A stretch of 64,000 nt of DNA from an uncultured Bacilli bacterium. Its GTDB lineage: Bacteria; Bacillota_I; Bacilli_A; RF39; UBA660. The notes under the pieces are model-generated. The model saw nothing but the letters and a program-made list of their open reading frames with translations, did no database searches and was not told where the DNA came from. Shown here piece after piece: positions 11,659-13,733 of the stretch; the first letter of the stretch is position 1, and each line of letters begins with the position of its first letter. The stretch is from the NCBI GenBank assembly GCA_934149325.1, contig CAKPEJ010000001.1, forward strand, positions 27,621 through 91,620. Reading direction: 5' to 3'. The position numbers and the translations under genes are program-made.

Positions 11659-12696
11659 ATGAAAAAAAGAAAAGGAATATCTTTGTTTAGATTATTAATA
11701 ATTTTAATTTTTGTACTAGCAATTTTTAGTTTATTATCTTCTATATTTATAAATAAAAAGAATGATGCTTTAGAAGATAAAGTAATAAATCAAGCAAAAA
11801 AATATGTAAATACAAATCAAAATAATTTTGATAATTATTTTCTTAGTAAATTTACAGAATATTTATTGCCGGTAGAAGAACTTAATATTTCAAATGATTT
11901 AAATGGATATGTAAAAATAACAAAAGATTCAAAGTATCATTTTGAATATATTAAATATAAAGGAAATTCACTTTATAGTGAAATACTAAAAAATAATAAT
12001 ATTACTAATGAAGATGATGGATTATATATTAATGAATATGAAAATAATAATTTATACGATTTAAAATATATATTTAAAGGTGAGAATGTTAATAATTATA
12101 TAAAAATAAATTCTACATTATATAGAATAATTGGGATCACTAATTCTTATAATTTAAAAGTAATCAGAAGTGATTATAATACAGATATAAATTTTTATGG
12201 ATTAGGTGGAAATATAAATTTTTTGATAGAAGATGACGATTTAAAGACTGTAAATAAATTAAATTATTCAAGTTCAAAATATTTTTCATTAGGAATGTAT
12301 AATGTGGGGTTTATACCAGAAGATGATGAAGTTTTAATTGATATTATAAAAAGTGAAAGAAAAAATTTAAGTATTACAAAAAAAGTACCAAATTATATAG
12401 GATATGCAGGTTTAATAAATGTATCAGATGTTATTAGAGTAAGTACAAATGATTCTTGTAATATAAAAAATTTAGGTAGTTGCAAAAGCTATTTATACGA
12501 TTTATTAAATGATGGATTAGTAACAGCAAATAGTACATCTTGTGATGAGAAAAATTGTATATATGTTGTTACTAAAGAAGGTCTTAAAAAAACAAGTGAT
12601 GTAAAAATGAGTGGTAATAAAGAAGTAGTATATATAAAAGGAAGTATAAAATATTTAAATGGTGATGGAAGTATAAATAATCCATATACTTATTAA
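11659..12696 (+). CDS. Secreted or membrane-anchored protein of unknown function
   Basis: A GGAGGT RBS precedes the start. The N-terminus has a basic stretch followed by a hydrophobic segment (KKRKGISLFRLLIILIFVLAIF). The rest is Asn- and Tyr-rich with scattered Cys. No known motif was recognised. Confidence 0.5.
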   Translation: MKKRKGISLFRLLIILIFVLAIFSLLSSIFINKKNDALEDKVINQAKKYVNTNQNNFDNYFLSKFTEYLLPVEELNISNDLNGYVKITKDSKYHFEYIKYKGNSLYSEILKNNNITNEDDGLYINEYENNNLYDLKYIFKGENVNNYIKINSTLYRIIGITNSYNLKVIRSDYNTDINFYGLGGNINFLIEDDDLKTVNKLNYSSSKYFSLGMYNVGFIPEDDEVLIDIIKSERKNLSITKKVPNYIGYAGLINVSDVIRVSTNDSCNIKNLGSCKSYLYDLLNDGLVTANSTSCDEKNCIYVVTKEGLKKTSDVKMSGNKEVVYIKGSIKYLNGDGSINNPYTY

Positions 12697-12752
12697 ATTG
12701 ACAATATTGTTTTATGTGATTATAATACTTTGTCAAAAGAAAGGAACTTTTT

Positions 12753-13733
12753 ATGCATAATATATCATTTTTATTAGATTATATAAAATTATCACATTTA
12801 ACAAAAGAAGAATTATCAAAAATAATTAATGTTGATATTTTATCTATAGATAATTATTTAAATGGTGAATTGCTTATAGATAAAACTATGCTTATTAAAT
12901 TACTTGATTATTTTAATATTGATAGTTTTGCAAGATTTAAATCGTGTATTGTGAGAATAACAAATTCGGAAAAAAGAAAGATTTATGATTTATCTTTTTT
13001 AGGTAAATATATGGCTGAAAATAAAATTACAATAATAGATTTATCAAAACTTACTCATATTTCAAGGGATAATATATCAAAAATTTCTAAAGGAAAAATA
13101 AAAGCAAATGATAAACAATTAAATAAAATATTAAATTTTTTTAATGTTTCTTCTAAAGAAGAATTAGAAGAATTAGTCAAATGTAATATAATTCCAGATT
13201 CAATAAGAAAAATTAGTGGTTTATATAAGCATAAAAATAATGTAAATGATATATATAATATTTCAAAGAATTTAGATGAATATAATTCTTTAAAAGAAGA
13301 ATTAAGTAATATTGATGAAATAAGAATGATTACTGTTATAAATAAAATTAATCTATCTGAATTTGATAGACGATTAGCTTTTATGTTGTTTTTTAGTAAA
13401 TATGATTACGATAAAAGATTAGAAAAAATTTCAAAAATATTTGGTGTTAATAAAGAGTATATAATAAAAATCAAAAAATATTGCATAGATAAATATGAAA
13501 TAGATAATATAAATTATGATAGAATGGAATATGTTATATCTAATATTGGAATGGATGAAAAAGATGAGAAAATAGCATGCTTATTATTTTTAGCAAAAAA
13601 TTCTAAATATACCGATTATGCGATAGCATCTTTAACTAATGTAAGTTATGAATATGTATTAAATATTAAGAAAATTTGTTTAGATCAGTATTATTTATGT
13701 ACACCTGTTTACAAATATAAAAGGGCAAATTAA
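12753..13733 (+). CDS. Multi-HTH DNA-binding protein: two XRE-type HTH modules followed by two sigma-70 region-4/LuxR-like HTH modules
   Basis: Two repeated segments resemble the XRE HTH (LSHLTKEELSKIINVDILSIDNYLNGE and ITIIDLSKLTHISRDNISKISKGK). Two later segments are sigma-region-4-like (RRLAFMLFFSKYDYDKRLEKISKIFGVNKEYI and KIACLLFLAKNSKYTDYAIASLTNVSYEYV). Confidence 0.5.
   Translation: MHNISFLLDYIKLSHLTKEELSKIINVDILSIDNYLNGELLIDKTMLIKLLDYFNIDSFARFKSCIVRITNSEKRKIYDLSFLGKYMAENKITIIDLSKLTHISRDNISKISKGKIKANDKQLNKILNFFNVSSKEELEELVKCNIIPDSIRKISGLYKHKNNVNDIYNISKNLDEYNSLKEELSNIDEIRMITVINKINLSEFDRRLAFMLFFSKYDYDKRLEKISKIFGVNKEYIIKIKKYCIDKYEIDNINYDRMEYVISNIGMDEKDEKIACLLFLAKNSKYTDYAIASLTNVSYEYVLNIKKICLDQYYLCTPVYKYKRAN

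Follow-up and report, generated by a model that had tools for sequence, protein, structure and literature searches.

A predicted membrane-anchored protein and a putative four-HTH regulator are encoded by apparently independent genes between uvrC and hrcA in an uncultured gut bacterium

The interval between uvrC and hrcA in an uncultured, very AT-rich gut bacterium holds two lineage-specific genes that, with moderate confidence, we regard as functionally independent of each other: gene A, predicted to encode an anchored protein, and gene B, whose product would be a sensor-less regulator carrying four HTH units in a single chain. This four-HTH design is unusual, and nothing ties gene B to heat shock. 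Positions below refer to the window, which is the whole 64-kb stretch of DNA that was analyzed.

Results

The segment from 11659 to 13733 is filled by two genuine ORFs of the ORF listing (Table 1), located between uvrC and the CIRCE/hrcA promoter as the preliminary description had reported, and Pfam confirms the identity of the neighboring genes. The start ATG of gene A lies 42 nt past the stop codon of uvrC. At the other end of the interval, the promoter of hrcA is overlapped by the sole CIRCE-like element of the locus, which we scored against the consensus TTAGCACTC-N9-GAGTGCTAA; no CIRCE was found upstream of gene A or gene B.

Table 1. Features of the uvrC-hrcA interval and its borders, with their positions in the window
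Feature	Position	Strand	Support or remark
uvrC, context gene	9838..11616	+	Pfam UvrC_RNaseH_dom 3e-46, UvrC_RNaseH, GIY-YIG
Shine-Dalgarno GGAGGT of gene A	11649..11654	+	read from sequence
Gene A, predicted 345-aa membrane-anchored, Asn/Tyr-rich extracellular protein	11659..12696	+	ORF, orthologs, composition
Gene A predicted N-terminal anchor, aa 7-31, after MKKRKG	11677..11751	+	Kyte-Doolittle, ortholog alignment
Gene B promoter TTGACA-N17-TATAAT	12698..12726	+	12/12; one of just two 12/12 sites within 11400-14000
Inverted repeat TTGACAA-N25-TTGTCAA around gene B promoter, candidate operator	12698..12736	.	chosen post hoc
Gene B, 326-aa four-HTH protein	12753..13733	+	ORF, Pfam, AF2
XRE-type HTH unit 1, aa 2-62	12756..12938	+	Pfam HTH_3, AF2 helices, unit HMM 1e-20
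XRE-type HTH unit 2, aa 77-143	12981..13181	+	
Gene B linker, aa 144-185, partly disordered	13182..13307	+	pLDDT <50 at aa 159-173
Sigma-70 region-4-like HTH module 1, aa 186-252	13308..13508	+	
Sigma-70 region-4-like HTH module 2, aa 252-317	13506..13703	+	internal duplicate of module 1; module HMM 7e-22
Terminator-like hairpin over gene B stop codon, 12-bp stem, U-rich tail	13719..13749	+	RNA fold -9.3 kcal/mol, z = -3.78 vs shuffles
CIRCE-like operator TTAGCACTC-N9-CATTGCTAA	13749..13775	.	arms vs consensus: left 9/9, right 7/9
hrcA promoter TTGACA-N16-TATAAT with extended TG	13763..13790	+	12/12 match
hrcA, context gene	13822..14808	+	Pfam HrcA 1.6e-48; then grpE, dnaK, pepF, dnaJ (L088 gene annotations)

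Gene A occupies the same position in all four related contigs (L001 to L004), with orthologs that are 48 to 59% identical. Gene B is present in L001 and L002 and absent from L003 and L004, where gene A is directly followed by a homologous CIRCE/hrcA promoter. The ortholog of gene B in L001, P0008, shares 37% identity over aa 3 to 313 and is followed by a further paralog, after which the contig ends without hrcA in view. Four other, independent assemblies of the same species, L088 to L091, carry the identical gene in the same arrangement; gene B matches at every nucleotide, leaving no substitutions for a dN/dS estimate. Since the four related contigs are all short, the pattern of presence and absence rests on few lineages; it suggests that gene A belongs to the local core of a narrow clade and that gene B is accessory at the uvrC-hrcA site. 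Two histories would fit: gene B may have entered the space between gene A and the hrcA promoter on the branch that leads to L001 and the window, or the branch of L003 and L004 may have lost it.

More distant relatives were represented by 80 HrcA-based GTDB loci, the nearest being 61% identical, from which we counted the species whose locus extends 4 kb or more upstream of hrcA (n = 51). A single one of these 51 species has uvrC upstream of hrcA, with different genes in between, and because the adjacency of uvrC and hrcA is missing, these loci inform on the neighborhood only and not on the gain or loss of genes A and B. An accessory island within a conserved neighborhood had been put forward earlier: its accessory character holds for gene B, and its conserved neighborhood has to be narrowed to the clade. 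Likewise, conservation of both genes in the uvrC-hrcA interval, which had been named as the mark of an ordinary core feature, was found for gene A (4/4 contigs) but not for gene B (2/4).

The gene A product possesses a single hydrophobic segment (aa 7 to 31; Kyte-Doolittle 19-residue maximum, 3.05), is rich in Asn (13.3% versus a background of 7.4%) and Tyr (8.4% versus 5.4%), and contains cysteines at positions 267, 275, 295, and 300, of which C267 and C275 are invariant in the orthologs. These features agree with the initial view of a membrane-anchored or secreted, Asn/Tyr-rich protein with several cysteines and point to an extracellular protein anchored in the membrane in type II orientation (N-in, C-out). 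No family match was obtained in Pfam, NCBIfam, or PHROG, and PDB sequences searched with a profile yielded no significant match. The AF2 model is poor overall (pLDDT 44, from an alignment of five sequences), and the best Foldseek match (E 1.1) is meaningless given such a model. According to hhalign (93.9%), the C-terminal domain (aa ∼116 to 288) has a distant relative in a secreted protein of 468 aa encoded in the MAG of another gut Bacilli bacterium. No strong promoter precedes gene A, the best match (9/12) being located inside uvrC; gene A is probably cotranscribed with uvrC by read-through, a proposal drawn solely from the spacing of the two genes and from the absence of a strong promoter.

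The N terminus of the gene A protein resembles those of type IV pilins and of Gram-positive Com pseudopilins in having a short basic leader ending in Gly (MKKRKG), followed by a hydrophobic residue, Ser, Leu, and ∼25 hydrophobic residues, and in a modeled long N-terminal helix (residues 9 to 52) that precedes strands, with pLDDT values of 55 to 86 for these parts. K5, G6, S8, L9, F10, and L13 are invariant in the orthologs and include a pilin-like K-G-x-S-L-F motif; gene A was the sole match of a pilin-type motif scan, and the N-terminal domain of geopilin is a weak PDB sequence match (E 0.44). A class III signal consists of a basic leader ending in Gly, a hydrophobic residue at +1, Glu at +5, and a stretch of ∼20 hydrophobic residues. 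The gene A protein has the leader, the Gly, the hydrophobic +1 residue, and the stretch, but, unlike type IV pilins, it carries Arg at +5 (Lys or Ser in the orthologs) instead of Glu, and with 345 aa it is far larger than typical pilins. It did not match N_methyl/TIGR02532 at an E of ≤1, and no pilus or competence gene, prepilin peptidase, or assembly ATPase/platform gene is found among the annotated ORFs of the window (1 to 46.2 kb). The class III signal of type IV pilins and pseudopilins is incomplete in the gene A protein.

The N-terminal part of the gene B protein matches Pfam HTH_3 in two stretches (E 8.1e-14; 51.8 bits for a cutoff of 23), as well as HTH_26 (41.2; cutoff, 22) and HTH_19 (36.6; cutoff, 30.2), and the two XRE units are 28% identical to each other (E 7.5e-9). 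In the AF2 model, the helices of unit 1 (H7-12, 18-25, 29-36, 44-53, and 59-73) form the five-helix bundle with the HTH at helices 2 and 3 that is expected of an XRE domain. The two C-terminal modules, which share 40% identity (E 7.6e-13), align to sigma regions 4.1-4.2 over the whole domain with scores that do not reach the gathering thresholds of Pfam and NCBIfam (TIGR02937, E 7.6e-4; Sigma70_r4, matched in 4 of 17 modules with a best E of 0.029, both under threshold). Their top PDB sequence match is FliA region 4 (E 0.077), hhalign gives 92.8% against region 4 and 25% against the XRE units, and the module HMM recovers, in L072, the region 4 of a bona fide sigma factor (E 3e-4). These comparisons suggest that, in spite of the subthreshold scores, the C-terminal modules are HTHs of the sigma-70 region 4 type.

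The AF2 model of the whole gene B protein is confident and all-helical, with four bundles and no further domain; its pTM of 0.40 means that the geometry between domains is not predicted. Neither Pfam nor AF2 reveals a sensor or dimerization domain, the remaining segment being the 42-aa, partly disordered linker. The protein opens directly with an XRE unit and shows no match to Sigma70_r2 in Pfam or NCBIfam, and as it lacks regions 2 and 3, it is not a sigma factor. The composition of two XRE and two sigma-4-like HTHs without a sensor, as read in the preliminary description, is thus borne out by Pfam HTH_3, by hhalign and the module HMM, and by the structure model that had been called for. That description would have been overturned by a known characterized family to which the 326-aa protein belongs; no such family claims gene B.

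Its sequence signals suggest that gene B is transcribed as a unit of its own. The promoter has the housekeeping consensus, an RBS is present, and the likely AT-rich terminator contains a hairpin that a rule-based terminator scan missed because its stem has too few G-C pairs. The inverted repeat around the promoter, a short sequence picked post hoc, occurs once in the window; it is not conserved at the promoter of the L001 ortholog, nor does it recur at the hrcA promoter. Together with the unequal presence of the two genes in the related contigs, and with the relatives of gene B that occur elsewhere without any gene A, the promoter and hairpin of gene B argue against the two-gene module that had been proposed.

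An exhaustive HMMER search was needed to find the family of gene B, which counts 29 representatives among 1.84 billion; a word-indexed homolog search with gene B recovered only its own 98% cluster, and the family profile gave nine matches. The hosts are very AT-rich uncultured gut Bacillota. The number of XRE units per protein ranges from 2 to at least 5: the unit HMM counts up to five per protein, and reading of the retrieved sequences, on which our view of repeat number variation relies, reveals more by eye in some relatives. The XRE units of the family carry an additional conserved start (Y-D-I-S-F-L-K-x-Y) and end (F-N-V-x-S-Y-E-E-L-K-E-L), and about half of the members terminate in one or two sigma-4-like modules. 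Over 33 XRE units, the entropy of the recognition-helix columns is 2.3 to 3.3 bits and that of the scaffold columns is 0.3 to 1.3 bits. The variable helix-3 residues are equally plain surface residues, which weakens the argument for a diversification of the recognition helix. At the sensitivity of our searches, we also rejected an organization of the long members as sigma-2, XRE array, and sigma-4, their N-terminal domain of ∼140 aa having no similarity to region 2 in Pfam, PDB, or hhalign (probability of 0.1% against two genuine sigma factors). Two scans of JGI metagenomes turned up no relative that could be confirmed, either for gene A or for the XRE unit, and our literature search found no paper on XRE plus sigma-4 fusions or on the gene B family. 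This family is rare and uncharacterized, and we found no family-specific model for its combination of XRE and sigma-4 in the libraries searched.

Discussion

We propose that the product of gene B is a cytoplasmic DNA-binding protein in which the tandem XRE pair would stand in for the usual XRE homodimer. Combined with the two sigma-4-type HTHs, this pair may allow a single chain to bind an extended, composite DNA site. The protein would then act as a transcription regulator that probably represses the gene B promoter and whose activity would depend on how much of it is present rather than on a ligand. DNA binding, recognition of a composite site by one chain, and autoregulation are inferred here from the established knowledge of the XRE and sigma-4/LuxR classes of HTH.

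The location of gene B immediately upstream of the CIRCE-overlapped hrcA promoter, and the fact that regulator genes often adjoin their targets, could designate it as a local regulator of the hrcA-grpE-dnaK operon, adding a layer of control to that of CIRCE, as suggested earlier. We consider this very unlikely: the relatives that lack gene B, L003 and L004, retain the homologous CIRCE and hrcA promoter, other family members reside in unrelated contexts (next to GH25/GH5 genes in L085 and a deacetylase gene in L087), a paralog rather than hrcA follows the ortholog up to the end of contig L001, and the repeat of the gene B promoter is not shared by the hrcA promoter. A role in controlling the adjacent surface protein gene, which would make genes A and B a functional pair, is quite unlikely too. 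The two genes are adjacent in the window, L001, and L002, and two other family members (in L085 and L087) also neighbor genes for membrane-anchored extracellular proteins, but these three cases of adjacency weigh little, since, by our impression, genes for anchored or secreted proteins seem common in the few loci inspected. Moreover, each gene is found without the other, gene A in L003 and L004 and gene B in its relatives elsewhere, and of the two genes, which share a strand, gene B is the downstream one and has its own promoter in front of it.

Its patchy presence at the site and its slightly low GC content (18.7%) would be consistent with gene B being the leftover repressor-type regulator of a decayed prophage or mobile element that had entered between gene A and hrcA. 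Phages typically encode XRE regulators, hits to PHROG "transcriptional regulator" families are obtained with the XRE part (phrog_8, 4.9e-9), and the best-studied tandem-XRE protein, Wmk of Wolbachia, is prophage borne (PMC12504857). However, the PHROG matches do not extend beyond the generic HTH. Gene B has housekeeping genes on both sides, with no flanking integrase, repeats, or phage genes, and the inserted stretch comprises this one gene and has clean boundaries. In GC3, gene B does not stand out from the genome (z, -0.40), tblastn against 50,697 phage records, 72,556 plasmids, and IMG/VR gave no match, and we judge such an ancestry distinctly improbable. A phage, plasmid, or defense origin was rejected in our searches, in which the phage, plasmid, IMG/VR, and defense libraries returned only generic XRE matches and PADLOC only noise. 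The GC and GC3 values of both genes A and B fall within the range of the window (z, -1.0 to -1.6).

It is also conceivable, albeit unlikely, that RNA polymerase, in place of DNA or in addition to it, is the target of gene B: by mimicking sigma region 4, the sigma-4-like modules would attach to the beta-flap or be in competition with the housekeeping sigma, and the XRE units would tether the protein to its sites, resulting in an activator/appropriator or an anti-sigma-like factor. The match of the C-terminal modules to sigma regions 4.1-4.2 across the full domain is in line with this possibility, as are a K-[IV]-F-G-V motif common to module 1 and SigA and the sigma factors that head the Foldseek matches of the full-length protein, albeit weakly (E ∼0.1). 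The reading that we prefer, a single-chain DNA-binding regulator independent of gene A, gives no basis for annotating gene B as a heat-shock regulator or as a sigma or anti-sigma factor, and the two genes should be treated separately in annotation. The uvrC-hrcA interval would then represent a variable slot in this clade.

If our reading is correct, gene B illustrates a little-explored route to DNA-binding specificity in bacteria, in which several HTHs of two classes are joined in one chain instead of a single HTH being dimerized, with a number of repeats that varies between paralogs of the family. Such proteins could help explain specific regulation in the very small, AT-rich genomes of uncultured gut bacteria and could offer modular DNA-binding scaffolds. 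An extension of this idea, which is speculative and in our opinion improbable, is that the family constitutes an undescribed "poly-HTH array" class, in which diversified XRE units capped by a sigma-4-like module read long DNA modularly, one unit per half-site, in a manner likened to eukaryotic zinc-finger or Myb arrays, or in which the cap recruits or blocks RNA polymerase; an expansion of this class in gut Bacillota with reduced, extremely AT-rich genomes would have replaced conventional dimeric regulators.

In classical XRE/Cro-C1 regulators, each chain has one HTH, and binding is by homodimers that usually form through an additional oligomerization or sensor domain. Gene B shares the HTH_3 domain (PF01381) with this group, which comprises the 434 and P22 c2 repressors, SinR, HipB, ClgR, and the C-proteins, but differs from it by two fused tandem units and by the lack of a dimerization or sensor domain. 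The C-terminal modules were compared with sigma-70 region 4 (Sigma70_r4/r4_2) and with stand-alone proteins having a sigma-4-type HTH (UPF0122/YlxM, KorA/TrfB, and the LuxR-GerE class), for which they score below the Pfam/TIGRFAM cutoffs; in contrast to these proteins, gene B carries two copies of the module in tandem, joined to XRE domains. Wmk, a candidate male-killing factor of Wolbachia prophage WO, is a putative transcriptional regulator of ∼300 aa with two tandem XRE-family HTH domains (PMC12504857) and is similar to gene B in combining these domains in a single chain. Wmk belongs to a prophage of an alphaproteobacterial endosymbiont, whereas gene B is chromosomal, lies between housekeeping genes, and has no phage matches, and the sigma-4-like C-terminal modules present in gene B are not mentioned for Wmk in PMC12504857.

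Domain architecture and family of gene B

Gene B, the 326-aa ORF between gene A (345 aa) and hrcA, is a separately promoted and terminated gene whose product carries four HTH units of two classes and no sensor domain. This architecture is unusual and uncharacterized and constitutes a new arrangement, in an uncultured organism, of very common DNA-binding domains. The preliminary description had read the protein as two XRE modules followed by two sigma-4-like modules, which Pfam, an AlphaFold model, and hhalign bear out; domain searches and the model agree with it that a sensor domain is missing. 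Pfam HTH_3 matches two stretches (8.1e-14, 51.8 bits), making gene B a member of the XRE superfamily via its first two domains; identity is 28% between these units (E 7.5e-9) and 40% within the C-terminal pair of modules (E 7.6e-13). The model, based on a 24-sequence family alignment, is confident and all-helical (mean pLDDT 84), with five-helix bundles at aa 2-73 and 77-143 and four-helix bundles at aa 186-265 and 269-325; the linker between the two pairs is partly disordered, with pLDDT under 50 at aa 159-173.

By fold class, the C-terminal modules are HTHs of the sigma-4/LuxR type, yet they fall under the family thresholds, and the HMM matches, consistent and sub-threshold, suggest sigma-70 region 4 in particular. 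TIGR02937 matched them at a sub-threshold E of 7.6e-4, Sigma70_r4 gave sub-threshold matches to 4 of 17 family modules (E 4.4e-4 in the L001 ortholog, from a related contig), and region 4 of FliA was the top match in a PDB sequence search (E 0.077). A profile of the 17 modules aligned by hhalign with four sigma region-4 sequences, two from the loci analyzed plus Bacillus subtilis SigA and Escherichia coli RpoD, at 92.8% over 47 columns, versus 25%, covering the bare HTH only, with the XRE units of the gene B family itself. Compared with two genuine sigma factors one at a time, the profile aligned at region 4 with only 17% and 51% probability, and among ∼1,500 ORFs the module HMM found region 4 of a genuine sigma factor (E 3e-4). 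Gene B itself was rejected as a sigma factor, region 2 having been tested for and found absent. The nearest studied tandem-XRE protein that we found, likened to gene B by description only, is Wolbachia Wmk, which is prophage borne and has two XRE HTH domains (PMC12504857); that source does not mention sigma-4-like modules, of which gene B has two.

The gene B family is rare and variable in repeat number: an exhaustive HMMER search of 1.84 billion representatives yielded 29 proteins at E ≤ 1e-3, of which 16 reach E ≤ 1e-10. Reading the sequences revealed tandem XRE units of ∼65 aa in every one, starting with Y-D-I-S-F-L-K-x-Y and ending with F-N-V-x-S-Y-E-E-L-K-E-L; by the unit HMM, a protein has as many as five, and counts by eye reach about eight in family member P0021 and about a dozen in the outlier P0011. 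Across 33 XRE units, column entropy is 0.3-1.3 bits in the conserved scaffold and 2.3-3.3 bits in the variable recognition helix. A single sigma-4-like module forms the C-terminal end of at least 15 of the 29 proteins, and only gene B and its ortholog have two. Some members carry an extra, unrelated N-terminal domain of ∼140 aa, in which no similarity to sigma region 2 was detected.

Genomic contexts differ among family members. In L001, a second paralog (2818-4218; >467 aa) lies directly 3' of the gene B ortholog, with an N-terminal domain of unassigned type, at least four XRE units, and promoter-like and terminator-like signals of its own; no hrcA is seen before the contig ends. The member at locus L085 has a GH25 gene on one side and a gene for a membrane-anchored GH5 protein on the other, and the neighbors of the one at locus L087 encode a polysaccharide deacetylase and an anchored protein. 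L085 (1-3134) also encodes two large proteins of 506 and 666 aa, immediately 5' of a sigma-70 gene; both have many faint Myb, HTH_38, GcrA, and Sigma70_r4_2 matches and represent a different type of multi-HTH array in a genome that has a gene B family member.

Locus organization and control signals

The window is very AT-rich (23.1% GC), and the ORF map and Pfam place on its + strand uvrC, gene A, gene B, hrcA, grpE, dnaK, pepF, dnaJ, a gene for a collagen-like repeat protein, and lon, in this order. The interval first singled out runs exactly from the ATG of gene A to the stop codon of gene B. Since a 186-kb ENA contig and three shorter assemblies hold the same locus, with genes A and B identical at the nucleotide level, the two genes are no assembly artifact.

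Features of the uvrC-hrcA region and of the polysaccharide cluster
Feature	Positions	Strand	Basis or remark
uvrC	9838-11616	+	ORF map, Pfam
Gene A, 345 aa	11659-12696	+	ORF map
Gene B promoter, TTGACA-N17-TATAAT, perfect	12698-12726	+	Directly 3' of gene A stop
Gene B, 326 aa	12753-13733	+	ORF map, Pfam
Gene B terminator, 12-bp AT-rich hairpin and U tail	13719-13749	+	-9.3 kcal/mol, z -3.78
CIRCE-like element, TTAGCACTC-N9-CATTGCTAA	13749-13775		Overlaps hrcA promoter
hrcA promoter, second 12/12 site	13763-13790	+	
hrcA	13822-14808	+	ORF map, Pfam
Polysaccharide or teichoic-acid-type biosynthesis cluster	30574-41593		

Between gene A and the control region of hrcA, gene B is predicted to be an insulated transcription unit, because it has its own promoter, ribosome-binding site (AAGGA, 7 nt ahead of the ATG), and terminator and is followed by a separate hrcA promoter; these two promoters are the only 12/12 sites within 11400-14000. 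The gene B promoter is bracketed by a 7-nt inverted repeat, TTGACAA/TTGTCAA, a pattern picked post hoc that is unique in the window and is not conserved ahead of the L001 ortholog; it is only a candidate operator. Relative to the established CIRCE consensus of the HrcA/CIRCE system, the left arm of the CIRCE-like element is perfect and the right arm has 7/9 matches.

Loci retrieved via HrcA indicate uncultured gut Bacillota, with MAGs labeled "Bacilli," "Tenericutes," or "Mycoplasmatota," and HrcA is only 61% identical to that of the nearest species representative. Despite the "Tenericutes" labels of related MAGs, the organism is walled, as deduced from its wall or capsule polysaccharide cluster, which contains LytR-CpsA-Psr as well as Bac_transf, three GT2, Glyphos_transf, GT11, EpsG, a flippase, a Wzz/tyrosine-kinase-like protein, and CpsB. 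Across the entire 64 kb, no tRNA genes were found and no Rfam family reached its gathering threshold.

Gene A is clade-core at the uvrC-hrcA site in four related contigs, and across these four lineages gene B has been inserted or deleted as a single gene between gene A and the promoter of hrcA, because gene A occurs in all four (48-59% identity, downstream of uvrC, a fragment of which is kept in three; L004 starts too near gene A to show one) and is followed by a gene B ortholog in L001 and L002 but not in L003 and L004. The ortholog is 37% identical over aa 3-313 and has a 118-aa N-terminal extension; in L003 and L004, gene A and ∼95 nt lead into the same CIRCE/promoter/hrcA arrangement. The neighborhood, initially taken to be conserved, is not: uvrC lies upstream of hrcA in only 1 of 51 species with at least 4 kb available upstream. 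In this more distant species, the interval (L025 5539-6883) is occupied by two unrelated genes, whose products are a membrane protein of 107 aa and a protein of 282 aa, which makes the space between uvrC and hrcA look like a variable slot.

Possible function of gene B

We lean, at little better than even confidence, toward gene B encoding a single-chain, multi-HTH, level-dependent regulator of composite sites that is probably autoregulated. The tandem XRE pair would stand in for the usual XRE dimer and, with the two sigma-4-type HTHs, would allow one chain to recognize a composite site of extended length; the protein would thus be a transcription regulator whose activity is set by its own level, probably acting at its own promoter. 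That the C-terminal modules mimic sigma-4 and direct the protein to RNA polymerase is unlikely.

It is slightly less probable still that gene B is the relic of a mobile-element regulator. No relatives turned up in phage genomes or plasmids, in IMG/VR, or in contigs of JGI metagenomes, nor in ∼1 Mb of DNA linked to hrcA in 80 related species. The composition of most family members is that of very AT-rich organisms, P0011 and P0032 being outliers. Genes A and B have 19.6% and 18.7% GC, and their GC and GC3 lie inside the spread of the window genes, so there is no compositional sign of recent foreign origin. We give the same low weight to genes A and B being a functional pair: they adjoin in the window, L001, and L002, but the two-gene module of the preliminary description is unsupported, given the separate promoter of gene B and its absence after gene A in the other two contigs. 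Least probable is a local heat-shock regulator, an idea suggested by the position next to hrcA that likewise found no support.

Gene A

The 42 nt between the uvrC stop and the gene A ATG contain a GGAGGT Shine-Dalgarno sequence, and no strong promoter was found upstream (the best match, 9/12, lies within uvrC); uvrC transcription presumably reads through into gene A. The protein starts with a basic leader, MKKRKG, and a single 25-residue hydrophobic segment (aa 7-31; Kyte-Doolittle maximum, 3.05). Given the length of this stretch and a leader that is positive inside, the segment is more likely a membrane anchor, with the C-terminal domain outside, than a cleaved Sec signal. Compared with the other window proteins, it is rich in Asn (13.3% versus 7.4%) and Tyr (8.4% versus 5.4%), with Cys at positions 267, 275, 295, and 300.

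Searches of Pfam, NCBIfam, PHROG, and PADLOC gave no family match, and a 5.8-billion-protein index held only four clusters of homologs, in whose alignment the N-terminal K-G-x-S-L-F, C267, and C275 are invariant and a G-x-G-S-I-x-x-P-Y-x-Y motif occurs at the C terminus. Residues ∼116-288 are distantly akin to a secreted protein (468 aa; L078 388-1794; hhalign 93.9%) encoded in a different gut Bacilli MAG, with GLY...Y-x-F/Y-x-G...NYI...RII and G-x-x-GL-x-NVSD...S-x-N-x-x-C motif types in common. The N terminus is similar to a prepilin signal, and in the low-confidence model (pLDDT 44, on which fold-search matches are meaningless) a long helix precedes strands, as in type IV pilins; we did not file gene A as a pilin since it has no Glu at +5, pilin HMMs do not match it, and no pilus or competence genes are among the ORFs annotated at 1-46.2 kb. 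Adjoining the gene B family member of L087, a protein (2576-3256) with the N terminus MKINNKGYASTIIMFSVLTLFL shares the K-G-aromatic/aliphatic-small anchor motif of gene A, the remainder being Gly/Ser/Thr-rich.

Other genes of the window

The collagen-like protein (20260-20931; Pfam Collagen, 2.3e-9) has 223 aa versus 203 aa in the otherwise identical same-species contig L088, ungapped identity stopping at 20414; this looks like a within-species repeat-length polymorphism. Ribosomal protein L20 (26249-26809), usually ∼118 aa long, totals 186 aa here, with a C-terminal extension matching Rho_N (3.4e-8). The IF-3 ORF (25636-26022) gives 128 aa from its first ATG, with most of the N-terminal domain missing; translation probably begins farther upstream, at a non-canonical codon, as it usually does in infC.
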